A stretch of 64,000 nt of DNA from Phycisphaerales bacterium (GTDB taxonomy: Bacteria; Planctomycetota; Phycisphaerae; Phycisphaerales; UBA1924), in the NCBI GenBank assembly GCA_047600535.1, contig JASGKR010000001.1, positions 2,719,638 to 2,783,637 of the forward strand. Direction: 5' to 3'. Positions 9,565-40,748 of this stretch are shown here, piece after piece (within the stretch, counting starts at the first letter, position 1; the number at the start of each line of letters is the position of its first letter). Made by a program: the position numbers and the translations under genes. The notes beneath the pieces are model-generated. The model did no database searches, was not told where the DNA came from, and saw only the letters and a list, made by a program, of their open reading frames with translations.

Positions 9565-9800
9565 GACGAGGCCCATGCGCAAGCTTTGGCTCGGTGTGCG
9601 GCGGAATGTGAGAACATAGAGAATCGAAACGCCGTTGCGCGAACGACCGCGCAGCCCAGGCTCGCGCCAGGGCCTCGTTAAAGCGACGACGCCCATGCGC
9701 AAGCTTGGGCTCGGTGTGCGATGGACTGTCGGGCACCGCGAGTGTTGCGGCGTCGTTGCGCAGACGACGCGCAGCCAAGGCTCGTTTTTCGGGCCTTAGA
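9565..9800. repeat. ~120-bp imperfect tandem duplication (2 copies)
   Basis: gacgaggcccatgcgcaagctttggctcggtgtgcg at 9565 matches gacgacgcccatgcgcaagcttgggctcggtgtgcg at 9685. Both copies also share a ...cgttgcgcRRacgacgcgcagccMaggctcg tail. The repeat lies between convergent genes. Confidence 0.55.
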
Positions 9801-11028
9801 ACGAGAAGTTGGTGTTCGGATCCGTCGCGGTCGGGCCTCCCGCGGGCAGGTAGCTGCCGCCGGAGATCGGGACGGGGTTGAGCGTCATCGGAACGATCGG
9901 GGCGACGGCGTTGTTGACGCCGATCACGTAGTTCGCCCCCGTGTTACCGCCGGCCGTGTGGCGGCCGACCCAGTTGAGCGTCCCGGTGATGTCGACGCCG
10001 CGGACGTTGCCGGTGGTGTGATTGCCCTCCAGGCGGTTGCGGGAGCCAGTGATCATGATCCCGCCGCCGGGGTTGGATGCGCCTGCGAGATTGTTGGTGC
10101 AGGTGTTATTCAGCAGCTCGCACTGGTTGACGGCCGCGATCCCGAAGTTCTGGTTGCCGAGCGCGGAGCAGCCGTGGATCGCGCTGCCGGTGAGGGCGGA
10201 GATCCCCCCGCCGGTGTTGGCCGTCGCCGTGCAGGCGCGGATGAGGAGGGCGTTGTTGGCGAAGATGCCGGCGCCGGTGTTGTTGTTCGACGTGCAATCA
10301 ATGACCTGCGATCCGGTGCCGACGGAGATGCCGATGCCGGCGTTGGTCGCCGCGCTGCAGGATTGGACGACGCCGGACGTGACCGTGACGATCCCGACTC
10401 CGCCGTTATTGCGGGCGACGCAGTTGCGGATGACCGCAAAGTCGCGCACCGAGATGCCGTCGGTCGTGTTGCCGTCGACCGTGCAGTCCTCGATAGTCAC
10501 GCGGTCGCCGCCCCTGATGCCGGCACTGTTGGCGATGAAGCGAACGTTGCGAATCGTCGCCATCTGGGGCGCCCCGACGGAGATGTTGATCCCGATGCTG
10601 CCGCACTGCGTCACAGTGCCGTTGAGAATCGTGATGTTGGACTGGCCGTCGAGGTACATGCGGATGCCCGTGCCCGGACCGCTGCCGCTTCCGCGGACCA
10701 TGAAGCCGTTGAGGTCGATGGTCACGTTGCTGGCGCCGATGGCGATGCCGGTCGTGTTCGCCCCTTGCACGACGTCGGCTTCGAGGTAGTAGCTTCCCGG
10801 AGCGGTGATCTCGAAGGTGCCGAACACCCCGCCGGGAGTGTTGGTGCTGTTGATGGCGATGCGCGGCTCAGTCTTGGCGATCTTGTTGTAAAGCTCCTGT
10901 GTCGTCTTGCCGGTCGGCGCGACCGCGCCGGCGGGAGGATCAAGCGGACCGAAGGCGCTGGCTGTGGCGGCGGCGACGAGGGAGGAGGCGAGTGCGACGA
11001 TAAGGCAGCGGCTGGAAGGAATGGTCAT
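9796..11028 (-). CDS. secreted right-handed parallel beta-helix repeat protein, paralog A, with Sec-type signal
   Basis: The signal peptide is MTIPSSRCLIVALASSLVAAATASA. The conserved family N-module is GPLDPPAGAVAPTGKTTQELYNKI...PRIAINSTNTPGG...APGSYYLEADV...IDLNGFMVRGSG. This is followed by many beta-helix rungs (NxxxGIxxxxS). Confidence 0.65.
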   Translation of the reverse strand: MTIPSSRCLIVALASSLVAAATASAFGPLDPPAGAVAPTGKTTQELYNKIAKTEPRIAINSTNTPGGVFGTFEITAPGSYYLEADVVQGANTTGIAIGASNVTIDLNGFMVRGSGSGPGTGIRMYLDGQSNITILNGTVTQCGSIGINISVGAPQMATIRNVRFIANSAGIRGGDRVTIEDCTVDGNTTDGISVRDFAVIRNCVARNNGGVGIVTVTSGVVQSCSAATNAGIGISVGTGSQVIDCTSNNNTGAGIFANNALLIRACTATANTGGGISALTGSAIHGCSALGNQNFGIAAVNQCELLNNTCTNNLAGASNPGGGIMITGSRNRLEGNHTTGNVRGVDITGTLNWVGRHTAGGNTGANYVIGVNNAVAPIVPMTLNPVPISGGSYLPAGGPTATDPNTNFSF

Positions 11029-11706
11029 GGCGAGAGCGTACCGGCGGTCACCTGCTACGCGGGTGCGGCGCGCGAAATTCCGCACGATTGCCTACTTCGC
11101 TGCGGGGTTGCAGTGGCGCTCCGCACGAGGCCCAAAGGCAAGCCTGGACTTTTAGCACGCTAAGCAGCTCGCCCGTGCCTTCTCCCCTTTCGCTACGCCT
11201 TCGGATTGAAAACACGGAGCTCAAAGAGAACACGGAGAAAGGCATGGGTACGGCCGCTGCCACCCCGCCCTTGCTTCCTCCACCCTACACCCCACACTAA
11301 CCGCCATTCTCAACGAACTCCACTCCGGTCTTCTCGCACGCTGCACAAGTTTCTCGCTACCACTCATGCGCTCTGCCGTTCTTTTCTCTCTATGTTTTTC
11401 TCCGTGCTCTCCGTGAGCTCCGTGTTTCACCGACTTTCCAAACAAGCCCTCGTAGCCGCCAAGCGTGCCGGGGTTTTCAAGCCGGCACCAGATTGCGCAG
11501 CTTGCCTAGTTACTAGGTGAGTTCCCCCAACTCAAGAGCTTCGTCAACCTTCGAGTCATGCACGATCTACAAAATCCCCGAATCGCGGGGCTTGCAACTG
11601 CATTCATTATCTGTATTGTGTGTGCGTCGGATGAACACCGCCGGTGTGGGCGGCCCGACATACACGCGAGCCCGTCGAGAGACGTGGCCAAAGAGGAGAG
11701 AGAGTC

Positions 11707-12518
11707 ATGAACAAGCTGACCGCTGTCGCCGTTGTTGCTATCGCCGCGCTCGCGAGCGCCGCTTCTGCCAACATCGTTTATACCACAGGTAATTACGAGC
11801 AGAACTTCAACTCGCTTGCGCTCAGCGGCACCAACCAGTCGTGGACCAACGACAGCACGATCAGCGGCTGGTTCCTCTACCGCGCGCCGCGATCTCGCCT
11901 TTCGCAATTACCACGTACAACGCCGCGCCCGGCTCTAACACCACCGGCAGCTTCTATAGCTTCGGCGCGGCTTCCAGCAACGAACGTGCGTTCGGCGCCA
12001 TCGGCTCCGGCGGCACCTACTACGGCTCACAAGCCAATGGCGCAGTGTGCGGCTGGATCGCCGTCAGCCTCACCAACGGCACCGCCGACACACTCACCGA
12101 TGTGACGATCGGCTTCGACGGCGAGCAGTGGCGCGACGGCGGCTCGAGCGGCGTCACGCCCGCAGCGCAAACGATGGTTCTCGAGTACGGCTTCGGCGCA
12201 ACCTTCGGCGCGGTGACCGCCTGGACTGCGCCGGGCGGGGCGTTCAACTGGAGCTCGCCCGTCATCACCAACACGGGCGGCGGCGCGATGGTCGACGGCA
12301 ACGACGCGGGCCGCGTCGCCGGCCGCGGCGGCACGATCAGCAACCTGGCGTGGGAGCCGGGCCAGACGATGTGGGTCCGCTGGGTCGAAGTGAACGACGC
12401 GGGCAACGACCACGGACTGGCGATCGACAACTTCTCGTTCTCGGCCACGCCCACGCCGGGTGCGGCCGCCGTGCTCAGCTTCGGCATGCTCGCCGCGACG
12501 CGCCGCCGTCGCGCTTGA
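11707..12518 (+). CDS. secreted protein with PTPGA...RRRR (PEP-CTERM-like) C-terminal sorting signal. It is interrupted by a frameshift near 11885.
   Basis: The signal peptide is MNKLTAVAVVAIAALASAASA. The C-terminus is ATPTPGAAAVLSFGMLAATRRRRA. Two overlapping ORFs (11644-12105 and 11841-12518) join with a 1-nt shift at WFLYRA|AAISPF. Confidence 0.5.
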
Positions 12519-12795
12519 CCCTACCCCACCTACAACCATTGTGAAGACCAACCGATAACAGGGCCTGGGCGTACGCCCGGGCCTTTTTCTTTCCATCACC
12601 GGCTCTACGACGTGTAGCCATTAAACGTGGCCGCAACACACATTGCACGGCGCGACATACCCGCAGCTCCACAGTCGCCGCTCGAAACTCGACCTGCAAA
12701 CGTTCTTCATCGCCTCACGCGATTCGGTATGAACGTTGGCCGATCCAGCACTTTTCCCCTTGCATGTCGCGAGGACTGCGCAGTACCGTGCCTCC

Positions 12796-13647
12796 ATGAA
12801 CGAGATCGAACGCCGCACACTCATCGGGGCCGCCGGCATCGGCGCCATCGCCGCACTTTCCAAGGCAGGACCCATCAACCCGCCGGCCGGACCAGTCGGC
12901 TCGACCGGCCGCACGCTCGATGAGGTCTACAACCGCATCCCCGCCGTCGGCGCAGGGGATGGACGCGCGGCGATCGCCGGAAATACCAACTACGGTGTGG
13001 TGCTCAACGCACCAGGCTCTTATCTGCTCACCGGCGATGTCGTCGACCCTCTCGGCAACGGCATCGTCATCGGCGCCAGCGACATCACGCTGGACCTCAA
13101 CGGCTTCGCCGTCCGCAGCGGCAGCGGTAGCGCGTCCGGCATCGCCCTCTCCCCGGGCCTCAAGCGAGTGGTCGTCCGCAATGGGCGAGTCAACGGCTTC
13201 CAGAACGGCATCCTGATCAACGCCGCTTGCCAGAACGTCGTGCTCGAAGACCTGCTGGTCACCGCGGCCCGCGTCACTGGGATCTACCTCAACAGCGCCC
13301 TGGGCGTGCGGGTCCGCCGTTGCACGGTGCAGGACACCGGCGCCACCACCGTTGCGTCCGACTCGATCTCCGACATCACCGGCATCGTGCTCAACAGCGG
13401 TGCATCCACGGTTGAGGATTGCACCGTCAACCGTCTTTACTACTACGGAACGGGCTCGGCGACTCGCCGCGGCATCTGGGCGCCGGACAGCCCGGGGAAC
13501 GTGATCGCGCGCTGCACGATTGCGCACGACGGCGCGATCACCGCGACCGGCATCGCCATCGCCGGAACGAACGTCTATCGCGACAACACGGTCGTCCACT
13601 TCAGTACGCAGTATTCGGGCGGCTTCAACGGCGGCGGGAACACCTGA
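12796..13647 (+). CDS. Tat-signal right-handed beta-helix protein, paralog B
   Basis: The Tat-like motif is MNEIERRTLIGAAGIGAIAAL. The family module is GPINPPAGPVGSTGRTLDEVYNRIP...APGSYLLTGDV...ITLDLNGFAVRSGSG. The C-terminus is YRDNTVVHFSTQYSGGFNGGGNT. Confidence 0.65.
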   Translation: MNEIERRTLIGAAGIGAIAALSKAGPINPPAGPVGSTGRTLDEVYNRIPAVGAGDGRAAIAGNTNYGVVLNAPGSYLLTGDVVDPLGNGIVIGASDITLDLNGFAVRSGSGSASGIALSPGLKRVVVRNGRVNGFQNGILINAACQNVVLEDLLVTAARVTGIYLNSALGVRVRRCTVQDTGATTVASDSISDITGIVLNSGASTVEDCTVNRLYYYGTGSATRRGIWAPDSPGNVIARCTIAHDGAITATGIAIAGTNVYRDNTVVHFSTQYSGGFNGGGNT

Positions 13648-13743
13648 GACATCGCAGAGTTTGCCATCGGCCCCCTCCCGGCATGAACCACGATTCACCA
13701 CAGCGGCCGCTCCGCATACAACCGCGGTGGTCATCACACATTC

Positions 13744-14106
13744 ATGGCCCGCTCCCCCTCTCTACCCTCAGCCATGGCCGACGACCCGCGCCTGAAGATC
13801 CCCGATGAACTGACGCGCCCGGTAGACCGCTCGAAGTTCCCCAGTCTCGCTCCCAAGGGCGATGCTGCGGGAACCGGTAAGGACAAAAAGGGCCGCGGCG
13901 ACGGGACGATGGAGCAATTGGTCAGCATCGGCGTCGTGGGGAGCAACTTCGCCCTCGCAGTCGCGGCGACAGGATTGATCGGCTGGGGCGTTCAAGCCTG
14001 GGTGCTCCCCAAGCTGGCCCCCTGGCCGCTGGTTGTCGGGTTGCTGTTGGGGGTGGTCGTGGGCGCCCTCCGGTTCGTGCAGGACGCCCGGAAGCTCATG
14101 AAGTAG
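13744..14106 (+). CDS. small membrane protein, AtpZ/AtpI-family-like, upstream of the atp operon
   Basis: The 120-aa protein has two C-terminal hydrophobic helices (LVSIGVVGSNFALAVAATGLIGWG..., WPLVVGLLLGVVVGAL). It sits directly 5' of the atpI-like gene and atpB. Confidence 0.4.
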   Translation: MARSPSLPSAMADDPRLKIPDELTRPVDRSKFPSLAPKGDAAGTGKDKKGRGDGTMEQLVSIGVVGSNFALAVAATGLIGWGVQAWVLPKLAPWPLVVGLLLGVVVGALRFVQDARKLMK

Positions 14107-14218
14107 AGACTGAAGCGCCAGCGATCAGGCACCAGCCCAGCCCGTCCCTTGTGGTGGTAGCTGTCTGGCTCCTGATGCCTGCTCGTCCACTTTCCTCCAC
14201 CTTACACCTCACCTACAC

Positions 14219-14742
14219 TTGGCCCCCTTGACCCCGGCCACCGGTCCATCTTCGTCGCCGACACCCTCAGCCACCCCGGCTGTCGGCGTTTCGTCGCTGG
14301 CGTGGGTGATGACGGCGGCGGTAATCTGCGGCGGCGTGCTGGCTGCCGGCGTGCTGGCACAGGTCACGTGGGCGAAGGGCACCCCGGACATCGCCGGACC
14401 AGCCGTGCAGGCCATTCTGGCCGTGCTTGTCGCGATGGGTGTCGGCTACAGCCTGTTCGCTCTGACGGTCGGGCGCACGCCCGCCTCGGCGCCGATGGGC
14501 CTGCTCGCCGGGTCGACGGTGCGGATGCTCGTCGCCCTCTCGATCGCGCTGGTCATGTTCTTCATGGGCGGCTTTGACAAGCCGACCGGCACCGCCTTCT
14601 GGATCGTCTTCCTCTCCGCAGCGCTGGCGGCAATCGTCGCCGAGGCTTCGTGGGGCGTGAAGAACCTGCACCGCATCGCGTCTGCTTCTCAGATTCCCGC
14701 TCCTCAGGCTACTACGGGCGCCGCGCCCGCCGAGACCCACTG

Positions 14743-14743
<1 letters not shown>
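14219..14743 (+). CDS. atpI: ATP synthase protein I-like hydrophobic protein
   Basis: The protein is 174 aa and highly hydrophobic with about 4 TM segments. Its stop overlaps the atpB start (TGATG). Confidence 0.45.
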
Positions 14744-16045
<1,302 letters not shown>

Positions 16046-16054
16046 TCAACCAAC

Positions 16055-16082
16055 GTGCGCCGTCCCGAAAGGGACGGCACAC
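16055..16082 (+). promoter_or_regulatory. stable GNRA-capped hairpin between atpE and atpF (possible attenuator or processing site)
   Basis: The hairpin is gtgcgccgtccc-gaaa-gggacggcacac, a ~12-bp stem with one mismatch. No T-tract follows. Confidence 0.4.
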
Positions 16083-16126
16083 GCTTCCGTCCTGACCGAC
16101 TTTCCACTCCGCCGGAGTTTCAAGCC

Positions 16127-16750: not shown

Positions 16751-16879
16751 GCGGAAGAGTCCAAAGGGTCGAGGAATCAAGGCATCGAGAAGATGCCGTC
16801 TCCTTCGCCCTTCCTTCCCCACTCTTTTCTTCTTGACCCCGCGGTCCCTCGATTCCTCGATCCCTTCCCCGAGCTCACC

Positions 16880-17621: not shown

Positions 17622-20600
17622 ATGAATCGCTGCCACATCGTGCGGTCGTTGGCTATCGCTGCGCTCGTCGCCGCGGCCGGTACCGGTACCTCTCTTGGCC
17701 AGACGGCCCATTGGATCGCTCCGGGCACGACCGGCGTGTGGAACGACCCGCTGAATTGGTCCGGCGGCCTGGTGCCGGGGAACGGGAATCCGGGGGCCCC
17801 CACTGTCGCGGTGATCGATCGGGCGGCTGCCGCGCCGTACGAGTCGGTGCTGGACTTCTCCGCGTCGCTGGGATCCGTGCAGATCACCGGCCCATTCGCA
17901 ACGCTGCGACACACCGCAGGCACGCTCACAACGCCGTCGGTCGCGATCGACGGCGGGACCTACCAGCTCATCGGCGGAACGGTGTCGGGCGCGGTGATCT
18001 CGTCCACAAACGGCGGCCGAGTGATGATCGGCACCGACGTCGGCAGCTTCCCCGGCTCGACGTTCATCAACTCGACCGTGAACGCACCCGCGACGCTCGT
18101 GCACGGCGACCTTCAGTTGGACTTCTCCACGTCGTTCCTCGGCGGGCTGACGGTTCTGCACCGCGGGTTCCTGACGTACACCGGCGCGGGCGTGATCCGC
18201 GGCAACATGACGCTCGACCCCAACGCGGGCGACGAGGGGCTCATCAACGTCACCTCCGCGACCGGCGCGAGCCTCTCGATCAACTCCGGCGTCACGATCA
18301 ACGGCAACACGCGGTTCCTGACCGACGGATCGGTCACCAACAACGGCACGGTCGAGCTCCATGACGTGGGCATGGACAACTCGGCCCACTCGTTCAGCAG
18401 CCTGCGTTCCAACTTCGGCACGGTGACCAACAACGGCACTCTTCGTGCTGACGGCGCGTGGATCAGCGTCACGGGCACGTCGTTCGTGCTGCCGGCGAGT
18501 GGACATCTCATCGTCGAGAACAACGCACGCATGTCGATCGGCGCTGGAAACGGTCAGGGCGGCAGCGGCTACACCCTCGCAGGCCAGATCGACGTTACCG
18601 GCAACTCGAGCCTGTCGATCGGCGGCTTTGGCAACTCCGGTTTTATCAACAACGTCAACCTTTCCTCCGACAGCACGCTTTTCATCTCGGGCATCCTCAA
18701 CAACGCGGGCCGCACGATCAATTTCACCCCAGGGATGGGCCGGATCGACGGCACCGGCGGCGTGATCAACGGCGGCACGATCAATATCCAGCCCGGCGGC
18801 CAGGCCCCGCGCCACACGCTGCTCGATGGCGTCACGGTCAACGCCGCTGAACTCGTGCTCGACTCGTCGATGCAGCTGCAGGGGGCGTCGGTGATCAACG
18901 CCCCGCTCATTCGCGTCGGCACCGGCACGCCCGCGGGCGAAGAGGGGGGCCAGCTCTTCATCTTCCCAGGCACCAACTTCGCCCTTGACGGGCGCGATGC
19001 GATTCTCGATCACGGCGAACTAAGCGGCTCTGATGACTGGACGCTCCACATCGCCGCGGGCTCGCAGCTCATCGGGCGCAACGGCGTGATGCGTTCACTC
19101 CTGTCCAACGACGGACTCGTCCTTGACGACACCGGCACAGGCACCATGATCCTCGGCCTGCCCCAGGCCGCCGGCGACTCCTACAACCGCGGCACCATCC
19201 GCACCGCCGTGCCGGGCGCGAGCATCATCGCGTCCAATATCCGCAACCAGGCAACCGGCCTGGTCGAGGCTGGCCCTGGTTCGACCCTCTGGCTCACCGG
19301 CCGCTTCGTCAACAACGGAGTGATCCGCTCCGACGGCGGCACGCTCGTCCTTGACGCTCCGATGGCCCGCAGCGCACTCGGCCAACTCCAGCAGATCAAC
19401 GGCGGCGACTTTGTGATCGCCGACCGTCTCGAGCTCGAAGGCTCGACGCTGGCGTTCGACGGCTCGACCAACGTGTGGCGCCTCGCGGGCACGATGGCCA
19501 ACGGCACGATCGATCTTCCCGCCGGCGTTCCGATGATCGTGTCGGGCGTAGCTGGCGACGGCGGCGGCCTGGTCAACCTCTCCACCGGCCCTGCGTCGCT
19601 TCAAAGCGTCACCCTCCATGGTGATCTGGACGTCCGGGGAGGAGCTCTCAATCTGCAGAACTCAACCATTACCGGGCACATTCAGGCCGCGCTCGGCACG
19701 GCCTTGCGGGTCTACGGCAATACACCCGACGCCCAGGGCCGCACGCCAATCGATCTGCGCATCACCACCGCAAGCCAGCAGACCACCACATACCTCTTCC
19801 CCAGCGGCACCACCGACTCCACCGGCTCCGTCAACCTCGCACCGACCTTTTCGTTCAACGGCGCTGGCAGCTTCACGCTCCCCGGCAACGCAGCGCTCCC
19901 GTCCATCAACCGCGGCCAGATCACCGCCGACCTTGCCGGCCAGATCCTGTACCTTGGCACCGGCACGACTGCATCGTTCACCAACCTGGGCACGGCGACG
20001 GCCCGCAACGGCTCGCGGCTGACCATCGGACCCGTTCTGAACGGCGCCGGCGGCGTCATCGGCGTCGAGCCCGGCAGCGAAACGTGGCTGACCCTCAGCG
20101 GTCCGAACACCGGCACGCTCGCCGTCGACGGCGGGCACATGCGGCTGCTCGGCACGTTCGCCGCATCGTCGATCGGGACCGTGACGCGGAACGCCGCCGC
20201 GCCCGGCCGGTTCACCATCGGCGGCACCGTAAACAATAGCGGCAACTTCCGCACCTCCGACTACGGCGGTCCGGTCGAACTGACCGGCGGCACCATCAGC
20301 GGCGGCACGGTGACGGTGAGCCCCGGCTTCCCCCTCATCGTCGCGCCTCTGACCGGAACCGGGATCAACCAGTATGGCAACGGCATCATCAGCGGCGCAA
20401 CCGTCAACGGTGCTGTCACGCTCAACGGCATCCTCGACCTGACCAACGGCGCCTCGCTCTCAAGCCCTCAGCAAACCACCACCGCCGGCGGCGCCCTGCG
20501 GTACAGCGGCGGCACGATCAGCGGGCTGAACTACACCATCGAGCCGGTCGCCAACGTCACGCCGCAGACGCGCTCGGCCTTCTACGCCAACGGCAACACC

Positions 20601-21452
20601 ACGCTGGGCGCAACCTCGCTGATCTCTGGCGCAGGCGGGCGGCTCACCGGCGGCACGTTCACCGTGCAAGGCACGCTGCGTGCCGACCGCGCCGCTGCGC
20701 CAGGCCTCAGCAACGTGCTGCTTACGCAGTTCACACGGATCCAGAACAGCGGCACGTTCCAGGCGATCAACGGCGGCACGCTCCGCATCGATTACGTGCC
20801 GCAGAGCCCCGGCACCTACGTCCTGGGCAACCTTGTCAACGGCACGCTCACCGGCGGCACGTGGCAGGTCGGCGCAGACAGCACGCTGGACCTTGGCGGT
20901 CGCACCGTGACGACCAGCGCCGCCGGAACGACGATCGAGCTCTCCGGCCTCAACGCCTCGTTCTCCGCGATCAACACCCTTCAGAGCAACGCCGGCACGC
21001 TCAGCCTTCTCACCGGCGCGGCCCTCTCGCTCCCCGGAAACCTCGCCAATACCGGCACGCTCGTTCTCGACGAAGGCCGCCTCACCCTCGGCGGCGCGTT
21101 CAGCCTCGGCACTGGAACGCCGCGCGGCACGCTCTCGGCTCGCAACCTGTCGACCGACGAGACGGCGCCGCTGGCATCATCGACCGCCGCGCTCTCCGGC
21201 ACGCTCAACGCCACGATCGACCCGACGTGGCTCCCCACCATCGGCGGCCGATTCCTTGTGATCTCCGCTCCGTCAGGAATCACGGGCCAGTTCACCACCA
21301 TCAACGTCACCGGCCTGCCCGCGGGATGGAGCGTCACACCCGCGTACGGCGCGACGCAGATGGAACTGGTGGCTATCCCGACACCGGGAGCAACAGCCCT
21401 CGCCGCGGCAGCATTGCTGGGACTTCGCCGGCGCCGCCCCGCCCGCCACTGA
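17622..21452 (+). CDS. giant (1276 aa) secreted Gly/Thr-rich beta-strand-repeat surface protein with PTPGA...RRRR C-terminal sorting signal
   Basis: The signal peptide is MNRCHIVRSLAIAALVAAAGTGTSLGQ. The body is repetitive passenger-like sequence. The C-terminus is AIPTPGATALAAAALLGLRRRRPARH. Confidence 0.7.
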   Translation: MNRCHIVRSLAIAALVAAAGTGTSLGQTAHWIAPGTTGVWNDPLNWSGGLVPGNGNPGAPTVAVIDRAAAAPYESVLDFSASLGSVQITGPFATLRHTAGTLTTPSVAIDGGTYQLIGGTVSGAVISSTNGGRVMIGTDVGSFPGSTFINSTVNAPATLVHGDLQLDFSTSFLGGLTVLHRGFLTYTGAGVIRGNMTLDPNAGDEGLINVTSATGASLSINSGVTINGNTRFLTDGSVTNNGTVELHDVGMDNSAHSFSSLRSNFGTVTNNGTLRADGAWISVTGTSFVLPASGHLIVENNARMSIGAGNGQGGSGYTLAGQIDVTGNSSLSIGGFGNSGFINNVNLSSDSTLFISGILNNAGRTINFTPGMGRIDGTGGVINGGTINIQPGGQAPRHTLLDGVTVNAAELVLDSSMQLQGASVINAPLIRVGTGTPAGEEGGQLFIFPGTNFALDGRDAILDHGELSGSDDWTLHIAAGSQLIGRNGVMRSLLSNDGLVLDDTGTGTMILGLPQAAGDSYNRGTIRTAVPGASIIASNIRNQATGLVEAGPGSTLWLTGRFVNNGVIRSDGGTLVLDAPMARSALGQLQQINGGDFVIADRLELEGSTLAFDGSTNVWRLAGTMANGTIDLPAGVPMIVSGVAGDGGGLVNLSTGPASLQSVTLHGDLDVRGGALNLQNSTITGHIQAALGTALRVYGNTPDAQGRTPIDLRITTASQQTTTYLFPSGTTDSTGSVNLAPTFSFNGAGSFTLPGNAALPSINRGQITADLAGQILYLGTGTTASFTNLGTATARNGSRLTIGPVLNGAGGVIGVEPGSETWLTLSGPNTGTLAVDGGHMRLLGTFAASSIGTVTRNAAAPGRFTIGGTVNNSGNFRTSDYGGPVELTGGTISGGTVTVSPGFPLIVAPLTGTGINQYGNGIISGATVNGAVTLNGILDLTNGASLSSPQQTTTAGGALRYSGGTISGLNYTIEPVANVTPQTRSAFYANGNTTLGATSLISGAGGRLTGGTFTVQGTLRADRAAAPGLSNVLLTQFTRIQNSGTFQAINGGTLRIDYVPQSPGTYVLGNLVNGTLTGGTWQVGADSTLDLGGRTVTTSAAGTTIELSGLNASFSAINTLQSNAGTLSLLTGAALSLPGNLANTGTLVLDEGRLTLGGAFSLGTGTPRGTLSARNLSTDETAPLASSTAALSGTLNATIDPTWLPTIGGRFLVISAPSGITGQFTTINVTGLPAGWSVTPAYGATQMELVAIPTPGATALAAAALLGLRRRRPARH

Positions 21453-33059: not shown

Positions 33060-33116
33060 GCGGCGGGTAAGGCTCACGAGGGGGTGAGCCCACTACCCGC
33101 CGCTTTCCTTTTCTCC
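33060..33116. terminator. nested-hairpin bidirectional terminator between convergent genes
   Basis: The outer stem gcggcgggta/tacccgccgc encloses the inner stem ggctcac-gaggggg-gtgagcc. tttccttttctcc follows. Confidence 0.6.
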
Positions 33117-33155
33117 TCTTCCTTCGATTGACCGCCCCAGCGAAGCAATGGCTTT

Positions 33156-33197
33156 CCGACTTCCGACTTCCGACTTCCGACTTCCGACTTCCGACTC
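33156..33197. repeat. heptanucleotide microsatellite (ccgactt)x5 plus ccgactc
   Basis: Seen directly in the sequence. The repeat abuts the stop codon of the corrected 33196-34262 gene. Confidence 0.85.
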
Positions 33198-34262
33198 AAT
33201 TCTCCCCACACCCATCAAAGAACCCGGTGATGAACGCGATGAAATCGTTGTTGTCGAGCTGACCGTCCGAGCCCGGCTGACCTCCCGCGCGCCCACGTCC
33301 GCCCGGGTGTCGGCAGCGAAGTACCGGTTGATGTACGCGATGAAGTCGTTGTTGTCGAGCGCACTGTCCGCGCCGTCGACGCCGCCCGCACTCCCCACGT
33401 CGCTCGGCCCGCAGGGGATGTAGATCGTCCGCCCCAGCCAGCGGTTGTTCACGATCCCCATCGACGGGCTGTTGATCGTGTACCCCTCAGGCAGCACGAA
33501 GACCAGCGGCTCACCGAAGCTCGGCCCGTTGGTCGCGATGCTCGCGTTCATGTGCCAGCTCGCCCCGCCCGGCGAGTGGTCATACGCGCCGCCGAACGCG
33601 ACGCCCGACGGATTCCGCGGCGTGCCGAGCGACATCGAAACGGTAAACGGCTGGTTCACCGGAACCAGCGCGCCGACGATGCTGACGGTTCCGCTGGTCG
33701 ATGACGGCGGGTTCCCGCCGCCGATGTGCGCCGAGAACGACCCGCCCTGACCGGCAATCGAGGCGCTCGCGTTGATCGTGTACCCCGCGGAGATGACGTT
33801 CTCGCCCGATGCACCGACGATCCCAATCACGCTGAACGACGCCGACACGGGAATCGTGTTCTCAAACTGCCCCGTCCCCGTGTACGAGATCACCACGTCG
33901 CTCCACGAAGCGCTCGACGTGCCCGACCCCGCCCACGTCACGCCGTCATACCGACCCGGGAGACTCGCAATCGCATGGCGGGATCCGGCGCCGTTGGCGG
34001 AGTGCTCAATCAGCCCACGGTCGACCGACGACATGAACGACTCGTGCGCCGCGCTCCCGTTCGCCGAGACCGAACCGCACGTCGAGATCCCCAGCATCGG
34101 AAACTGGCTTGTCCGGTTATCGCCGTGGAACGTCTGCGTCCCGCCTCCGTAGAAGACGGCCGCTCCGATGTTCGTCGAGTACGTCCCCTGCGCAAACGCC
34201 GCCGCTCCAGACCCCGCCACGCCCAGCCCCCCTACCACGGCCGCCAACATCGTCGCTCGCAT
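33196..34262 (-). pseudogene. secreted protein with duplicated DNNDFIA(Y/F)I dockerin-like C-terminal module ending FFDGC. A single-nt frameshift between the two repeats makes it a pseudogene or assembly error.
   Basis: The signal peptide is MRATMLAAVVGGLGVAGSGAAAFAQG. The first repeat is GSAGGVDGADSALDNNDFIAYINRYF. Shifting +1 near 33265 restores AGGQPGSDGQLDNNDFIAFITGFFDGCGEN-stop. The annotated ORF 33093-34493 reads through into junk. Confidence 0.5.
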
Positions 34263-34575
34263 GAGAACCTCCTTCGTGAAGTACTCAGGACTAGCGGCCG
34301 CTCGCACCAGCTTGGACACCTCCCCACCAAATATCAGGCGGCCCGCACACAGAGCCCCGACCGGCAGGAAGGGGACAGCGCCCTTCCTCCCACACCGCAG
34401 GCAGGCTTCACAAACAGACCTCCACCCCCCCACCCCCCCGCCTCCCCCACTCCCCAGCAACTCCACCCGCGGGAAAAACCCTGTTCTGACCACAACCGCC
34501 GTCTAGACGTCAACCAAGCACTCCCTCACCGGTGCCCAGTTGTCAGAGACCCGCGGCGCTGTAGAGTCACAACCC

Positions 34576-35880
34576 ATGCAACACGATCTCGACCGTCGTT
34601 TCCTTCTCGGTGGCCTCGCCGGCGCTGCCGGTGTCTCCGCTCTGGCCGCCATGGCCAAGGGCGGCCCGATCACCCCCCCCGCCGGGGCCGTCGCCTCTAC
34701 CGGCAAGCCCCTCTCAGACGTCGAGCCTCGCACAGCCATCAACGCGACCAACACCCCCGCGGCCAACGGTTTCACTCACGTCATCAGCACCAACGGCTCC
34801 TACTACCTCACCGCCGACGTCATCGCCACCGGCGGCAGCAACGGCATCCTCATCAACGCGCCGCGTGTCACCCTCGACCTCAACGGCTTCTCCGTCGTCA
34901 ACAGCAGCACCGGCTTGTTCGGCATCCTGCTCAATGGTAACGACCAGAACGCCGTGATCCGCAACGGCTCGATCTCGAGCTGGGGCCAGATCGGCATCGG
35001 CCACAACGGCGGAACCGCCCCCGCCATCCACCTGGAGAACCTCTTCCTCCGCAACTGCGTGCGCGGCATCCGCGTCACCGGCCCGCTTCGCGTCACCCAG
35101 TGCACCGCGCCAACTGCTCCGCCCTCGGCTTCGAGTGCATGAGCCCTCACGCCCTCTTTGAATCCTGCCTCGCCGAGGCCTGCACCGGCGCGGGCTTCTA
35201 CCTCAACCCTTACAGCGTGGCTCAAGGCTGCATCGCCAACACATGCGGCACCGGCTTCTTCGGTAACGACGGCAGCCGCCTTATCGACTGCTCCGCCACC
35301 GCCAACACCACTCTCGGCTTCGACCTCGGCTCCGGCGTCTTCCTCCACCGCTGCACCGCTCGCGGCAACGGCACAACCAACGCCGCCGGAAACGCCAACA
35401 TCCGCGCAGGCTTCCGAACCCACATCGCCCAATGCCTGGTCGACGCCGGCGCTTACCGCGGCATCGTGACCGCCCACGCCTGCATCATCGCGGAAAACCT
35501 CGTCAGCACAACCTCGGGCATCGGCATCGAGGCCGGCGACGGCTGCACGATCGAGCGCAACAACGTCTCCAACAACACCGGCAACGGCGTGCAAATCGCC
35601 AACAGCTGCCGCGTCCACGCCAACATCATCGACTACCACCCCACCGCCGGCACCTCGGCCATCCGCTGCCTCGGCAGCAACAACTCGATCGAGCAGAACA
35701 ACCTCACCCGCGGCTCCGATCGGTGTCGACATGACCAACTCGACCAACAACGTCATCCTCAACAACCGCGTCTCCTGCACCACGCCCTTCGCCGTCAACG
35801 CCGGCGGCAACTGGTACCCGCAGATCTCCGTCGCCAACACCGGCTCGGCAGCCACGCCGTTCTCCAACGTGGTGTATTAG
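34576..35880 (+). pseudogene. Tat-signal beta-helix protein, paralog C, with two internal frameshifts (~35110 and ~35715)
   Basis: The N-terminus is MQHDLDRRFLLGGLAGAAGVSALAAMAKGGPITPPAGAVASTGKPLSDVEPRTAINATNTP. The reading frame hops through ORFs 34540-35142 and 35100-35945 and then a third frame. That third frame ends ...NNRVSCTTPFAVNAGGNWYPQISVANTGSAATPFSNVVY, which is homologous to the paralog F C-terminus. Confidence 0.55.
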
Positions 35881-36047
35881 CCGTGGCTTGGACGCCGCCA
35901 GGCTCGGCTTTGCGAGCCTGGCGCGTTGATCGCCCGCTGCAGTAACAGCAACAACCAAGCACTTTCCGCACGCTCACTCACGATTCACTGGCCGTGCGAA
36001 CCCGCCTTCGCCGCCGGTCTGAACACCGCAATCGAATACCTACACAC

Positions 36048-36992
36048 ATGACCACTCACGCCAACGACACCTCTTCCCCCACCGACAACCTCGATCGCCG
36101 CTTCCTACTGGGCGGACTCGCCGGCGCCGCGGGTATCGCCGCGCTCGCCGCCATGACGCGCCCCGCCTCCGCCGGCCCGCTCAACCCGCCCGCGGGTCCG
36201 ATCGCGGGAACCAGCCACACGCTCGACGAGATCTACAACAAGATCCCCGCCTCAGGCACTGGCGCAGGCCGCATCCCCCTCGTCGGCGGCAACCAGCCGA
36301 TCACGATCACCCAATCCGGCTCATACATCCTCACCGGCAACCTCGCCAATACCGGCAGTAACCCTCTCGCCGTCTTCGGCGCCAACATCGACATCGACCT
36401 CAACGGCTACTCCGTCTCTGGCGAACTCGAACTCTCCGCGATCGTGGTTCAGGGCCGCAACATCCGCATCCGCAACGGCATCATCCGCGAGTCCTACTAC
36501 GGCGTCGGCCTCACCGGCATCTCCGGCGTCGTGCTCGAGGACCTCATCATCGATCGCTGCCGCTTCGCCGGCATCGCCGCCAACGGCGGCACGATGCAGT
36601 CCATCAACATCCGTCGCTGCAACGTTTTCGATACCGGCGCCATCTCCCTGCCCACCGACCCGCCCTCGGGAAGCTACCGCGGCATCTACCTCAACGGTTC
36701 CGGCCACACTGTCACCGACTGCACCGTCCAGCGCATCATCCCGCCCGTCGGCGCCGCCTTCCGCGGCATCGAACTCACTGGTTCCGGCCACGTCGTCGCA
36801 CGCTGCATGGTCTCCAGCAACGCCGCTCTTGCAGGTATCGGCATCCTCTGCAGCGGCGGCACCTACCGCGATAACACCGTCGTCAACTTCACCACGCCCT
36901 ACAGCGGCGCCAGACAACGGCGGCGGCAACGCCTGACCGCAATGTCGCCCAGCGGCGATAACGCCCGCAACGCCGCCGATCCCAGGCTGTGA
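36048..36992 (+). CDS. Tat-signal beta-helix protein, paralog D. A C-terminal frameshift is likely, with the true stop near 36936.
   Basis: The N-terminus is MTTHANDTSSPTDNLDRRFLLGGLAGAAGIAALAAMTRPASAGPLNPPAGPIAGTSHTLDEIYNKIP. The family end motif YRDNTVVNFTTPYSG continues as DNGGGNA-stop in the +1 frame. Confidence 0.6.
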   Translation: MTTHANDTSSPTDNLDRRFLLGGLAGAAGIAALAAMTRPASAGPLNPPAGPIAGTSHTLDEIYNKIPASGTGAGRIPLVGGNQPITITQSGSYILTGNLANTGSNPLAVFGANIDIDLNGYSVSGELELSAIVVQGRNIRIRNGIIRESYYGVGLTGISGVVLEDLIIDRCRFAGIAANGGTMQSINIRRCNVFDTGAISLPTDPPSGSYRGIYLNGSGHTVTDCTVQRIIPPVGAAFRGIELTGSGHVVARCMVSSNAALAGIGILCSGGTYRDNTVVNFTTPYSGARQRRRQRLTAMSPSGDNARNAADPRL

Positions 36993-37073
36993 GCACGGCC
37001 GCGCAGGCTTATCCGACCTGCCGAGGGTCCGCAACAAGCTTGTACCTAGGCGATTTGCCCGTACACTGAGGGC

Positions 37074-38384
37074 ATGACCAACGACCTCGATCGTCGGTTC
37101 CTTCTGGGGGGCCTCGCAGGCGCAGCCGGTATTTCTGCGCTCGCGGCAATGGCAAAGGGAGCCGGCCCCCTCAACCCGCCCGCCGGAGCCGTCGCTTCCA
37201 CCGCCAAACCACTGGCCGATCTCGAGCCCCGCACTGCGATCAACGCCGCAAACACCCCCGGCGACGCCACCGCTGCGTTCATCATCAGCCAGCCCGGAAG
37301 TTACTACCTCACCGCCAACACGCCGGTTCCGCCCGGCGGCCAGGACACCATCCGCATCACCGCCAACGGCGGCACGGTGATCATCGACCTTAACGGCTTC
37401 ACGATCGCAAGCGCCAACAACGCCGTCCGCATCGCCGCCGCCGCCACTTCCGACGTCACCGTCCAGAACGGCGTCATCGTCAACTGCAATAACGCCGTCA
37501 CCAGCGCCGCAGTTGTCGCTCTGAACGCGCGCCTCCTCGTGTCGAACGTCCGATTCTCCAACTGCCTGGCGTGCATCTCCACGCAGTCGCCTGTCGAGGT
37601 TCGTAATTGCTCGCTCAATAACTCGTCGGGCTTGGGCACCCCCGTCGGCATCAACGGCGGCGCTCGCAGCCTCGTCGAATCCTGCCTGGTCGCCACGCCC
37701 GGCTCCAACAACATCATGCTGGGCGCCCAATCGATCGTCCGCAACTGCATCGTCAACGGCTCAAGCGGCTACTCCGTCGACGTCGGCGGCGGCTCGTTCG
37801 TCGACTCGTGCACGCTCAGCAACGGCAACACCGGCATCCGCATCGGCCAGGTGAGTGGAGGCCCCGGCGGCGCCGTGCGCAACTGCACGCTCTCAGCCTT
37901 CGCCATCGCCGGCATCAACGCCGTCGGCTCGACGATCGAAGGAAACACCATCATCACTCCCCAGACCGGCACGCCCCGCGGCATCGAGTCACAGGGCAAC
38001 TGCGACATCGTCGGCAACCGCATCGACGGCTCGGCCGGCGCCGGAGTCGGCATCCGCCTCTACAGCGGCCGCAACACCGTCCGCGCCAACGGCGTGAGCG
38101 GATTCAGCGGCACAAACGGCATCGGCATCTCGATCTTCCCCACCGCCGGCACCGGCAACGCGGGCAACAAGATCGTCGACAACGAGCTCGTCAGCAACTG
38201 GCTCCACATCGGCGCCAACGCGTTCTACAACTTCATCGCCCGCAACACCATGTCCTTCGTCGGCGCGGGCGGCAACTTCAACAACGCCGGCAATAACGCC
38301 TACGGCCCCTTCGTCCTCTGCAACAACACCGACTTGTCGACCGTCGCAGGCACCACCCACCCGCACGCCAACCTCGTCTACTGA
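37074..38384 (+). CDS. Tat-signal beta-helix protein, paralog E (full length, 436 aa)
   Basis: The N-terminus is MTNDLDRRFLLGGLAGAAGISALAAMAKGAGPLNPPAGAVASTAKPLADLEPRTAINAANTPGDATAAFIISQPGSYYLTAN...IIDLNGFTIASAN. Many N/G/S/T-rich beta-helix rungs follow. Confidence 0.7.
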   Translation: MTNDLDRRFLLGGLAGAAGISALAAMAKGAGPLNPPAGAVASTAKPLADLEPRTAINAANTPGDATAAFIISQPGSYYLTANTPVPPGGQDTIRITANGGTVIIDLNGFTIASANNAVRIAAAATSDVTVQNGVIVNCNNAVTSAAVVALNARLLVSNVRFSNCLACISTQSPVEVRNCSLNNSSGLGTPVGINGGARSLVESCLVATPGSNNIMLGAQSIVRNCIVNGSSGYSVDVGGGSFVDSCTLSNGNTGIRIGQVSGGPGGAVRNCTLSAFAIAGINAVGSTIEGNTIITPQTGTPRGIESQGNCDIVGNRIDGSAGAGVGIRLYSGRNTVRANGVSGFSGTNGIGISIFPTAGTGNAGNKIVDNELVSNWLHIGANAFYNFIARNTMSFVGAGGNFNNAGNNAYGPFVLCNNTDLSTVAGTTHPHANLVY

Positions 38385-38486
38385 GGCTCGAGCCGACCGC
38401 CATCGTTCACCGAGAGAATGTGCCTAGAGCACACCGCTCGGAAGCAAAGGGCTGGTCATCCCGTGGTTTGTCTGTAGACTGCCCAA

Positions 38487-39656
38487 ATGACCAACGACCT
38501 CGACCGTCGCTTCCTCCTCGGCGGCCTCGCCGGCGCTGCTGGCGTCTCCGCCCTTGCTGCGATGACCAAAGCCGGCCCGCTGAACCCTCCCGCCGGCGCC
38601 CTTGTCTCAACCGGCAAGACGCTCACCGACGTCGAGCCGCGCACCGCCGTCAACGCCCAGAACACGCCGCCAGTCGGCAACTACCTCTTTTCGCTCCCAA
38701 CCGCGGGCTCGTACTACCTCACCGGCAACATCTCCGTACCGGCAAACCGCACCGCGATCCTCATGCCCGAGGGGGCCACGCTCGACCTCAACGGCTTCAC
38801 CATCGCCGGCTCCGGCGCCGCTTCCAACGGCGTAGAGGCCCGCAACGCCTGCACCGTCCGCAACGGCTCGATCAATAACGTCGGCAGCGCGGTTCTCGTC
38901 GGCGTCGCTCCAAGCCTCTCCGTCACCGTCGAAGACCTGCGCGTCACCGGCTTCCTGTCACGCGGCATCGATATCGGCGGCCCCTCGGTCGTGCGCCGCT
39001 GCACGGTCAGCGGCCAGGGAATCACCGCGATCGAGCTCCAAGGCGACCACGGCGTCGTCGAAGACTGCGTCGTCAGCAATCTCGTCGCCGGCGGCGGCGG
39101 TGCGATTTACCTCAACTCCTACAGCATCGCCCGCCGCTGCCACGTCAGCCGCTGCACCGTCGGCATCCGCCTCGGCTTCGGCTCCGTGGCCGACGAGTGC
39201 GTCGCCGTCACCTGCGGCCACACCGGCTTCCAGGCCGGCCAGCGCGCCGTCGTGCAGCGTTGCTCGGCGATCAATATCACCGTCGGCGCGGCAGGCAACC
39301 CCGGCGTCGGCATCGACCTCACCGACGGCGCCGAGGCCGTCGGCTGCTCCACCCTCAGCTGCTACACCGGCATCCGAGGCTCGACCGGCGCCCGCATTAT
39401 CGAGTGCACCGCCGACGCCTGCGCGTCCGCTGCCGTTCGCCTCACCGGTCCGGGCAACACAATCGACTCCTGCCGGCTGAACCGCAGCAGCACCGGTGTC
39501 GACATGACCAATGTCGGCGGTAACTTCGTTCAGAAGTGCGTCCTGATGGGCAACGGCACCGCGTTCGCCGTCAACGTCGGCGGCAATTGGTACCCCAACG
39601 TCACGCTGGGCGCCACCAACTCCGCTACCAACCCCCTCGCAAGCGTCGTCGGCTGA
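38487..39656 (+). CDS. Tat-signal beta-helix protein, paralog F (389 aa)
   Basis: The 5' coding DNA is near-identical to paralogs E and G (atgaccaacgacctcgaYcgtcg...). The protein has the same N-module and a beta-helix body. Confidence 0.7.
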   Translation: MTNDLDRRFLLGGLAGAAGVSALAAMTKAGPLNPPAGALVSTGKTLTDVEPRTAVNAQNTPPVGNYLFSLPTAGSYYLTGNISVPANRTAILMPEGATLDLNGFTIAGSGAASNGVEARNACTVRNGSINNVGSAVLVGVAPSLSVTVEDLRVTGFLSRGIDIGGPSVVRRCTVSGQGITAIELQGDHGVVEDCVVSNLVAGGGGAIYLNSYSIARRCHVSRCTVGIRLGFGSVADECVAVTCGHTGFQAGQRAVVQRCSAINITVGAAGNPGVGIDLTDGAEAVGCSTLSCYTGIRGSTGARIIECTADACASAAVRLTGPGNTIDSCRLNRSSTGVDMTNVGGNFVQKCVLMGNGTAFAVNVGGNWYPNVTLGATNSATNPLASVVG

Positions 39657-39695
39657 ACGACTGGCCTCAGGCCCAATGCGCAGTATCCTGTCGCC

Positions 39696-40748
39696 ATGAC
39701 CAACGACCTCGATCGTCGCTTTCTCCTCGGCGGCCTCGCCGGCGCTGCCGGCGTCTCCGCCCTCGCCGCAATGACCAGCCGCGCACACGCGGGCCCGCTC
39801 AACCCGCCCGCCGGCGCCGTCGCCGCCACCGGCAAAACGCTCCCCGAAATCGAGCCGCGCACCCCGATCACCGACGCCAACACCCCGGGCACGGCCAACG
39901 TCCTCTTCCGCATCACCCAGCCGGGCTCGTACTACCTGACCGGCAACATTCTGGGCTTTCCCGGCAAGAGCGGCGTGCTCATCGCCGCCGACAACGTCAC
40001 CCTCGACCTCAACGGCTTCGCGCTCCTGGGCGTGCCCGGCAGCGGCGACGGCATCGCCGGCAACGACGTCTCCAACGTAACCGTGCTCAACGGCGTCTGC
40101 AAGGGCTGGGGCGCCACGGGCGTGTCGTTCTACGGCTCCGCCGTGCAGGGAATCCGCATCCACGGCGTCACCGCGGCCAACAACGTCAACGGCATCTATG
40201 TAGACCGCCTGGCCGAGATCAGCGGGTGCATCGCGCTTAACAACACAGTCACCGGGATCGAAGCCGGCAACAGCTCCGTAGTCACCGGCTGCACCTGCTG
40301 CGGCAACGCCAATGGCATCCGCGTGGGAAACAACGCCTGGGTGGAGGGCAACACCGTCGCCGGCGCCGCCGCCTGGGCAGGCGAGGGGACCGGCCCAGGC
40401 GCGGAGGGCATCCGCGCACGCATCGCCAGCACGATCGTCGGCAACAACGTTCGCTCCTTCGCCATCGGCTACCGCCAGGCCGCCGCCGTCTCCGGAGAGT
40501 TCGGTCTCTGCCGCATCGAGAACAACCAGTGCCTCTCCTGCAACACCGCCTACAAGATTGAGGGAACGTCCAACATGCTCCGCAGCAACACCAGCGCACT
40601 GGCCGCCGCGGCCCACTTCAACATCGCCGCGAACAACATGGCAAAGGTCGTCGTCGCCACCATGAACGGCGCGGCCTTCACCAACACCGGCGGCACATCA
40701 ATCCTTCCCACCGGCGCAGACACAAACACAAACCTCATCCTGGCATAA
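39696..40748 (+). CDS. Tat-signal beta-helix protein, paralog G (350 aa)
   Basis: The N-terminus is MTNDLDRRFLLGGLAGAAGVSALAAMTSRAHAGPLNPPAGAVAATGKTLPEIEPRTPITDANTPG...SYYLTGNI...VTLDLNGFALLG. Confidence 0.7.
   Translation: MTNDLDRRFLLGGLAGAAGVSALAAMTSRAHAGPLNPPAGAVAATGKTLPEIEPRTPITDANTPGTANVLFRITQPGSYYLTGNILGFPGKSGVLIAADNVTLDLNGFALLGVPGSGDGIAGNDVSNVTVLNGVCKGWGATGVSFYGSAVQGIRIHGVTAANNVNGIYVDRLAEISGCIALNNTVTGIEAGNSSVVTGCTCCGNANGIRVGNNAWVEGNTVAGAAAWAGEGTGPGAEGIRARIASTIVGNNVRSFAIGYRQAAAVSGEFGLCRIENNQCLSCNTAYKIEGTSNMLRSNTSALAAAAHFNIAANNMAKVVVATMNGAAFTNTGGTSILPTGADTNTNLILA

Follow-up and report, generated by a model that had tools for sequence, protein, structure and literature searches.

Seven related genes in one region

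We analyzed a stretch of 64,000 nucleotides from the metagenome-assembled genome of a Phycisphaerales bacterium (contig JASGKR010000001.1, positions 2,719,638 to 2,783,637; hereafter the window). Within 31 kb, the window carries seven copies of a family of genes for exported right-handed beta-helix proteins, which share a conserved module (the N-module) behind the signal peptide. The seven genes form a true paralogous family, as had been proposed in an earlier reading of this DNA (the original prediction). We built a hidden Markov model (the module HMM) from the seven N-modules, from GP[LI]xPP to DLNG[FY], and ran it with all filters off against the six-frame open stretches of at least 40 codons in the window. 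It gave exactly seven matches (E from 7e-38 to 1e-29; the next best was at E 0.17), which are the seven genes originally predicted, and the motif that had been quoted for the module is correct in all seven translations. We refer to the genes as c1 to c7, in their 5' to 3' order in the window:

c1, 9796..11028, minus strand: 410 amino acids; N-module at 10702-10950; module HMM E 5.5e-34
c2, 12796..13647, plus strand: 283 amino acids, short "EIYNKIP/EVYNRIP" subtype; N-module at 12868-13107; E 1.9e-30
c3, 34576..35880, plus strand: frameshifted; N-module at 34663-34890; module HMM E 1.3e-37
c4, 36048..36992, plus strand: body of the c2 subtype with an array-type signal peptide; N-module at 36174-36410; E 1.1e-29
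c5, 37074..38384, plus strand: 436 amino acids; twin-arginine (Tat)-type signal; N-module at 37164-37400; E 7.6e-33; C-terminus …THPHANLVY
c6, 38487..39656, plus strand: 389 amino acids; Tat-type signal; N-module at 38574-38798; E 7.7e-34
c7, 39696..40748, plus strand: 350 amino acids; Tat-type signal; N-module at 39792-40019; E 7.2e-38; the copy modeled with AlphaFold

The tandem of five is real: c3 to c7 lie head to tail on the plus strand, with intergenic gaps of 39-167 bp. All seven N-modules are present where the genes were predicted, but two of the genes are not intact reading frames. c3 appears as two separate entries in the list of open reading frames (ORFs), and three-frame translations confirm two frameshifts (from frame 0 to frame +2 near 35110 and back to frame 0 near 35715). 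The reconstructed c3 protein has 433 amino acids, is 37% identical to c6, and has a C-terminal tail of the c6 type (…GGNWYP…SNVVY); c3 is either a pseudogene or an assembly error. The frame of c4 shifts near 36900. Its alternative frame ends in …DNGGGNA*, which resembles the end of c2, and the true stop is probably near 36936. Frameshifts are also present in two nearby genes for proteins with a GC-type dockerin (33093-34493 on the minus strand and 56397-~59010 on the plus strand), and the housekeeping genes look intact. The frameshifts in the window could be pseudogenes, population heterogeneity, or assembly error. The two predicted subtypes hold roughly: c2 and c4 are of the EIYNKIP type and c3, c5, c6, and c7 are of the VEPRTAINA type, but c1 carries both elements.

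The fold and the conserved ends

The predicted beta-helix bodies are borne out by Pfam and by structure prediction. The Beta_helix model (PF13229, cutoff 25.9 bits) matches c1, c2, c4, and c6 above its cutoff (93.7, 43.7, 38.2, and 52.5 bits, respectively), and neither c5 nor c7 has any Pfam match in the sequence scan. The AlphaFold model of c7, which was built with an alignment of 84 sequences, is one right-handed beta-helix (predicted local distance difference test, or pLDDT, 87.4; predicted template modeling score, or pTM, 0.81), and between residue 51 and about residue 220 every 10-residue block averages 95 or more. The strands follow one another closely and the sole low-confidence internal stretch is a short loop (226-232). 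Confidence is also high for the last ten residues (mean pLDDT 92), of which 346-349 form a strand. As modeled, the N-module of c7 (residues 33-110) consists of an extended lead-in and a short helix, located at the "PEIE" of the EPR motif, together with the first strands. Judging from this model, the N-module (about 90 residues) is the N-terminal cap and the first rungs of the helix and not a separate domain, so the original idea of a separate constant module for anchoring or secretion did not hold up.

The body has roughly 8-14 rungs of 21-22 residues with a conserved interior ladder (C-x-A-x-x-N-x-x-x-G-I). In c1 the rungs are regular, at 21 residues, and the C.x..N ladder has a period of 21. 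In the alignment of 84 homologs, the near-invariant positions of the body are Gly, Cys, and Asn only; the other rung positions are not conserved, and no charged or polar body residue outside the ladder is conserved across the paralogs.

Both ends of the protein are conserved among 178 members of the family. The original prediction had missed the C-terminal end, where about 70 residues (…GN.I.RNTC.GNT.NW.I.AGN…GSTDPNANF[ST]Y) are conserved right up to the stop codon. Of 183 complete members, 162 have Y, F, or H as their final residue. This tail is present in c1 (which ends in …TDPNTNFSF), in c5, and more loosely in c7. c3 and c6 have a variant of it (…GGNWYP…), and the short c2/c4 subtype ends differently.

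We compared the c7 model to structures in the PDB with Foldseek. The matches were generic beta-helices, all of them glycan-active proteins or adhesins, and included a GH87 glucanase (GH is short for glycoside hydrolase), the HK620 tailspike, the polysaccharide lyase (PL) 6kfn, which acts on alginate, Pel9A, GH110, and the adhesin PfbA. The best E value was 3e-5, the template modeling (TM) scores were 0.25-0.59 (0.59 for 6kfn), and sequence identities were 8-15%. At the sequence level, a profile of the family matched NosD (7o0y, E 3.9e-4) over about 110 residues, which are rungs only, and a profile of the N-module gave only chance-level matches to PDB sequences.

The paralogs are old

The original prediction took near-identical DNA at the 5' ends of the tandem genes as a sign of recent duplication or gene conversion. 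This near-identity was overstated: the signal-peptide DNA of c3 to c7 is 75-80% identical, with 93% (79 of 85 bases) only between c6 and c7, and the identity of the modules is 68-81%. In a DNA alignment of the first 480 bases, the similarity stops where the signal peptide ends, an outcome that the original prediction had itself foreseen as telling against its proposal. Within the signal peptide, a 22-codon core (LDRRFLLGGLAGAAG[VI][SA]ALAAM) gives a nearly identical protein in all five copies, yet 6-16 of its 66 bases (9-24%) differ. Because almost all of these differences are synonymous, the core indicates that the protein sequence of the signal peptide is kept by purifying selection and not by recent gene conversion. 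No two copies share an exact run of more than 26 nt at any point, and the bodies of the copies have diverged as far as unrelated GC-rich sequence.

We compared the seven genes to family loci from other genomes (named L001 and so on). These loci came from a search of species-representative genomes with the N-module profile, which gave 346 confirmed stretches; 77 loci were kept for analysis. c1, c2, c6, and c7 each match a protein from another genome best over their full length, and c3, c4, and c5 give scores that are close or tied. c1 is 39-42% identical to its best matches, and c2 is 49% identical to a protein in L072. c6 has a clear ortholog in L001 (L001_6985-8175; 61% identity over 385 amino acids), as compared to at most 37% full-length identity to its paralogs in the window, of which c3 is the closest. 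c4 is 40% identical both to c2 and to L072. Because the best full-length matches lie in other genomes, the paralogs are old, with duplications that predate the divergence of these Phycisphaerales lineages. The signal peptides also recur elsewhere: relatives of c2 that share its signal peptide are in L072 and L003, the array-type signal peptide is also found in L034, and a variant of it is in L001, L003, and L052.

Recent duplication of the array, or homogenization of its 5' ends by gene conversion, would account for signal peptides that are nearly identical as proteins, for the close similarity of c6 and c7 in this region, and for the mosaic structure of c4, whose c2-type body with an array-type signal peptide is the only hint of exchange at the 5' ends, and apparently of an old one. 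But the synonymous differences in the core, the shortness of the exact runs, the divergence of the bodies, the best matches in other genomes, and the presence of the array-type signal peptide in other genomes all speak against it. We consider such a recent origin very improbable, and we reject recent gene conversion as largely refuted by the synonymous divergence and the best matches in other genomes. This corrects a tempting misreading, as the identical signal peptides of these tandem genes reflect selection on a Tat signal and not recent gene conversion.

We also scanned metagenomes with a degenerate pattern of the signal-peptide core and found two contigs only, neither of which is from a close strain. 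At the edge of one metagenome contig (L085:1-45), 45 bases are 100% identical to positions 38499-38543 of the window, within the signal-peptide DNA of c6; the remainder of that contig is unlike the window.

Export signals

The mature proteins are predicted to start at G-P-L-x-P-P. Ala directly precedes GPLxPP in 179 of 193 family members from other genomes, which fits cleavage by signal peptidase I that would leave Gly-Pro as the mature N-terminus.

The original prediction of export by the Tat or Sec route holds, with the qualification that Tat is not a mark of the family. Most of the 193 members elsewhere have Sec-type signals, and just 17 of them (9%) have signals of the RR type, which fall into three conserved classes that track subfamilies. 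In the window, c1 has a Sec-type signal peptide (MTIPSSRCLIVALASSLVAAATASA|F) and the other six copies are of the RR type (for c2, MNEIERRTLIGAAGIGAIAALSKA). The core of the RR-type signals is less hydrophobic than that of the Sec-type members (1.98 versus 2.41 on the Kyte-Doolittle scale), and their last six positions contain more basic residues (0.94 versus 0.09 per peptide). Weaker hydrophobicity of the core and a basic residue near the cleavage site are established hallmarks of Tat signals. In the six copies in the window, the motif is RR-F/T-L-L/I, hydropathy over 12 residues peaks at 1.85-2.09, and one K or R lies in the last six positions; together, an RR motif, a weak h-region, a basic c-region, and A-x-A are found in these six copies and not in c1. 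With these features and an RR-x-F/L-L motif, the RR-type signals look genuinely Tat. Because six of the seven copies are of the RR type, versus 9% elsewhere, the window is unusually rich in Tat-type subfamilies.

A large family without a name

Of 1.84 billion cluster representatives, 12,001 match the N-module profile at E ≤ 1e-3, and 4,214 of these do so even at E ≤ 1e-10. Almost all of the 77 loci are labeled as Phycisphaerales, Phycisphaeraceae, or Planctomycetota. They contain 196 copies, typically in tandem arrays on one strand, and the largest arrays have 13 genes (L009), 12 genes (L026), 9 genes (L030), and 8 genes.

As originally suspected, the N-module does not belong to a named family: it is not covered by any model in Pfam, NCBIfam, or PHROG, nor by a PDB sequence, and the NCBIfam and PHROG scans gave nothing useful for the family. 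The homologs are annotated only as "hypothetical" or as "right-handed parallel beta-helix repeat-containing protein"; c7, for instance, is 100% identical to the database protein QM783_13295, a "hypothetical protein". In the literature that we searched, we found no description of the family or of the candidate partner described below, and a paper on Phycisphaerae genomics (PMC11266412) does not mention the relevant terms.

Some distant relatives (P0241, P0244, and P0247, which has 4,160 amino acids) have three to six cores of the module (…YTISQPGSYYLTGN…NVTLDLNGF) in one long protein, so the N-module also occurs as an internal repeat. The C-terminus of these multi-module relatives is different (…RYLMP).

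The fold and the generic annotation of these proteins are already known. What is new is the N- and C-terminal signatures, the scale of the family and its organization in arrays, the Tat-type subfamilies, and a conserved 3' partner gene. A family with thousands of members and with up to 13 consecutive genes has had no name, model, or paper, and the signatures of the N-terminal cap and the C-terminal tail would let it be annotated and counted. Its hosts, the Phycisphaerales, are widespread and rarely cultured, and they degrade complex carbon.

A recurrent neighbor gene

In the 77 loci, we clustered the ORFs up to 5 kb away from a family gene. No obligatory partner emerged, and only two kinds of neighbors recur: a gene for a secreted protein with a dockerin, and pairs of an extracytoplasmic function (ECF) sigma factor and a Ser-Thr kinase. 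Neither kind was found in the window.

The secreted protein is about 215 residues long; a "YAWGENIGWINF" repeat occurs in it four times, and a GC-type dockerin lies at its C-terminus. It is predicted to be a small, Trp-rich beta-barrel of four hairpins, and we will refer to it as the barrel protein. Its dockerin scores just below the cutoff of NF041540, the NCBIfam model (28.6-28.7 bits versus a cutoff of 29), and superposes on a clostridial dockerin (6kgf_D) with a target-normalized TM score of 0.58 and a probability of 0.92, although the overall E value of 0.37 is not significant. With an HMM of the repeat region, we found the barrel gene in 23 loci, always on the strand of the array and directly after the last family gene. 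Among the 67 arrays with enough downstream sequence, this is 34%. In the reverse direction, starting from three barrel proteins on megabase contigs, the genes just upstream contained the N-module in all three cases. The barrel protein has thousands of homologs at 50-80% identity, none of which has a name, and the family gene just upstream of it does not come from one fixed subfamily.

In 8-11 of the 77 loci, an ECF sigma factor/kinase pair is no more than 5 kb away from an array. Such pairs also turned up in two of the three reverse look-ups, and they are possible regulators of the arrays. Pairs were seen at:

L082, 3092-3706/807-3095 and 8218-8775
L083, 11203-13603
L017, L031, L066, L067, and L076

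What the family might do

With moderate confidence, we favor the reading that the seven genes are old paralogs of a large family of exported beta-helix proteins, centered on the Phycisphaerales, and that they form a diversified repertoire for glycan recognition. Each paralog would present a different lateral face on a constant scaffold, and together they would act at the surface or envelope of the cell by binding, and possibly cleaving, glycans. The conserved ends would be caps that double as a common handle for a shared partner, and the candidate for that partner is the four-hairpin beta-barrel protein with its GC-type dockerin. We consider a role in glycan recognition the most likely one because the scaffold resembles beta-helices of glycan-active proteins and adhesins and because the hosts degrade complex carbon (a genomic study, PMC11266412, describes the Phycisphaerae as complex-carbon degraders). 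We lean slightly towards binding over cleavage because no catalytic residues are conserved. In our judgment, the conservation of both ends exceeds what capping needs, and together with the recurrent dockerin-bearing neighbor it hints at a shared docking partner, which is speculation. The dockerin-bearing barrel protein at the end of a third of the arrays elsewhere suggests a role at the cell surface.

Several points weigh against this reading. Glycan binding is proposed by analogy, and we identified no ligand-binding motif. The likeness of the beta-helix fold is generic, as the Foldseek scores show (E values no better than 3e-5, TM 0.25-0.59). The lack of residues conserved across the family is compatible with catalytic sites that single subfamilies might have. 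Neither the window nor two thirds of the arrays contain the candidate partner, whose physical interaction with the family is hypothetical. The export route and the cleavage site are predicted from sequence features. Finally, the conservation of the ends could reflect the needs of folding and capping alone.

If the proteins were instead secreted polysaccharide lyases or hydrolases (depolymerases like those among the carbohydrate-active enzymes, or CAZymes), with one polymer for each paralog, they would make up a PL or GH family that has yet to be described. Enzymes provide the closest solved folds (GH87 alpha-1,3-glucanase, the HK620 tailspike endoglycosidase, 6kfn with the highest TM score, Pel9A, and GH110), a sulfatase gene adjoins one family member, and the breakdown of complex carbon that has been described for the Phycisphaerae would suit such enzymes as well. 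However, a Pfam scan at E ≤ 1 found no PL or GH family (PL1/3/6/9 or GH28/49/55/87/110) and only Beta_helix and NosD, no acidic or basic residue of the body is conserved among the 84 homologs, and the c7 model has its strands close together, with a single short, low-confidence internal loop. We consider an enzymatic family possible but unlikely. Another idea is that the N- and C-terminal modules are docking elements, so that the rods either stack head to tail into mixed fibers or are all tethered to the cell surface by the barrel protein as an adaptor, in both cases as a variable surface coat. Both ends of the rod are conserved across paralogs and genomes while the body has no conserved residue outside the ladder; a third of the arrays have the adaptor-like gene immediately downstream, and the reverse search succeeded in all three cases; its dockerin superposes on 6kgf_D, with the reservation about significance given above; and other proteins with GC-type dockerins are encoded in the window, including by the upstream neighbor of the array. 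On the other side, the C-terminal end of c7 is confidently modeled and includes a strand, the tails of the c2/c4 and c3/c6 subtypes differ, and the adaptor gene is missing from the window and from most arrays. We consider docking elements of that kind doubtful.

A phage-related identity (prophage or tailocin proteins that resemble tailspikes or bind receptors), or a role as accessory proteins of the NosD type, seems most improbable. There are Foldseek matches to tailspikes, a weak match of c2 to a PHROG tail-spike family (E 0.037, with none for the other copies), and matches to NosD both in Pfam and in the PDB (the profile match to 7o0y). But the neighbors are housekeeping genes (ATP synthase, pgk, panC, and gcvT), we saw no phage structural genes in the window or in the loci examined, no nosZ, nosF, or nosY is nearby, and all of the copies carry signal peptides, unlike tail proteins. 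We therefore rejected a prophage or tailspike identity, given the single weak PHROG match, the housekeeping neighbors, and the signal peptides on all copies. Orthology to NosD was also rejected: only c2 scores above the cutoff of PF05048 (30.5 versus 23.6 bits), c4 and c6 are below it, and there are no nos genes among the neighbors that we scanned.

A bolder reading, which we regard as a long shot, is that the paralogs are interchangeable "cassettes" of an undescribed surface-display system of the Phycisphaerales. The rods would have variable sides, and their invariant N-terminal caps and C-terminal tails would plug into a common partner or into each other. The four-hairpin, Trp-rich beta-barrel would dock the rods to the cell surface via its GC-type dockerin, and the neighboring pairs of ECF sigma factors and Ser-Thr kinases would exert control. 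If true, this would be a cellulosome-like or variable-coat architecture made from parts that are unrelated to the clostridial cohesin-dockerin enzymes. In any case, constant ends, variable sides, and a recurrent dockerin-bearing neighbor are a testable lead on how these bacteria build their surface or recognize polysaccharides.

Other features of the window

The window is chromosomal, with genes for ATP synthase, pgk, panC, gcvT, an M28 peptidase, and an SPFH protein. It is rich in other surface proteins that carry GC-type dockerins or sorting signals like PEP-CTERM. Other features mentioned here are:

33093..34493, minus strand: secreted protein with a GC-type dockerin, the divergent upstream neighbor of the array; frameshift inside the dockerin
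46981..49107, minus strand: secreted protein with a GC-type dockerin, scored with NF041540
56397..~59010, plus strand: large beta-propeller/GC-dockerin gene; dockerin recognized by eye; frameshifted
40852..41751, minus strand: HNH-like gene
41821..43188, minus strand: uncharacterized gene of 455 amino acids
44902..45594: DUF2726 gene

The upstream neighbor of the array (33093-34493) matches only the first half of NF041540 (29.7 bits), and the second half (…DNNDFIAFITGFFDGC) is in another frame. We treat this gene only as context for the array. NF041540 matches none of the six family proteins that were scanned (c3 was read by eye only), and all seven copies end in …NF[ST][FY]-like or other tails and not in a GC-type dockerin. 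The PEP-CTERM-like sorting signals (…TPTPGA…hydrophobic…RRRR) are in three plus-strand genes (11841-12518, 17622-21452, and 51488-52207), one of which encodes a repeat protein of 1,276 amino acids without a Pfam match. The matches of these proteins to the PEP-CTERM and MYXO-CTERM models of NCBIfam are weak.

A TANNNT hexamer ends 6 nt before the start (8 nt in c3) of six of the family genes (11028 on the minus strand, 12796, 34576, 37074, 38487, and 39696), which would imply that each array gene has its own promoter; c4 lacks the hexamer. TANNNT at a spacing of 5-8 nt is also found at 13774, 26821, 27824, 29201, 40852-41679 (minus strand), and 45019, at gcvT, panC, an atpI-like gene, and others. 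Judging from the positions of the hexamer, this looks like widespread leaderless transcription. A scan of the array for promoter and terminator consensus sequences did no better than in shuffled sequence.

Two parts of the window have a lower G+C content (GC). Near its start, in a stretch with GC of 0.57-0.61, are a nucleotidyltransferase of the CD-NTase/SMODS type (53-1126, plus strand) and a DUF6119 protein (4934-6637, minus strand); this stretch may be a defense island resembling CBASS (cyclic oligonucleotide-based antiphage signaling system). Directly after the array (40800-46000), GC falls to 0.53-0.57, and this region is probably a mobile or defense island.

Comparison with known systems

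The family has the same fold as generic proteins with PbH1 repeats (PF13229), whose rungs of 21-22 residues likewise have Asn and Gly-Ile ladders. PF13229 covers the rungs only, whereas the Phycisphaerales family adds the conserved N-module of about 90 residues and the conserved C-terminal tail of about 70 residues. Its mature N-terminus is also fixed (A|GPLxPP), its genes form tandem arrays, and its taxonomic range is restricted. The best structural neighbors of c7 are tailspikes (HK620), GH87, PL lyases (6kfn and Pel9A), and PfbA, all of which work outside the cell as rods with a lateral groove along which polysaccharides are read. In contrast to these glycan-active beta-helices, the family lacks conserved catalytic residues, a trimerization or head-binding domain, and a phage context. 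NosD (PF05048, 7o0y), the periplasmic subunit of NosDFY, is likewise an exported beta-helix protein with similar rungs, but the family is outside of any nos context, has many paralogs per genome instead of one, and has an N-module without a counterpart in NosD.

The polymorphic membrane proteins (Pmps) of chlamydiae are also a paralogous family of beta-helix surface proteins that are partly encoded in gene clusters, and the chlamydiae and the planctomycetes are grouped in the PVC (Planctomycetes-Verrucomicrobia-Chlamydiae) superphylum. As autotransporters, Pmps combine repeats of FxxN and GGA[ILV] with a beta-barrel at the C-terminus; the Phycisphaerales family essentially lacks these motifs and has no barrel. 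We rejected a Pmp identity (PF02415): the proteins contain 0-1 GGA[ILV] and 0-4 FxxN each and have no match to PF02415 or to an autotransporter model. Pmp-like motifs have been reported in one Phycisphaerae protein, which belongs to a different beta-helix family (PMC10715098).

Lastly, the array resembles the variable surface families of Mycoplasma and Borrelia in its tandem paralogs with a conserved signal peptide and divergent mature regions. Those families, with their conserved 5' ends, vary by recent recombination or conversion and by phase switching. In contrast, the paralogs of the Phycisphaerales are old and have orthologs across genomes, and conversion tracts were not found in the window.

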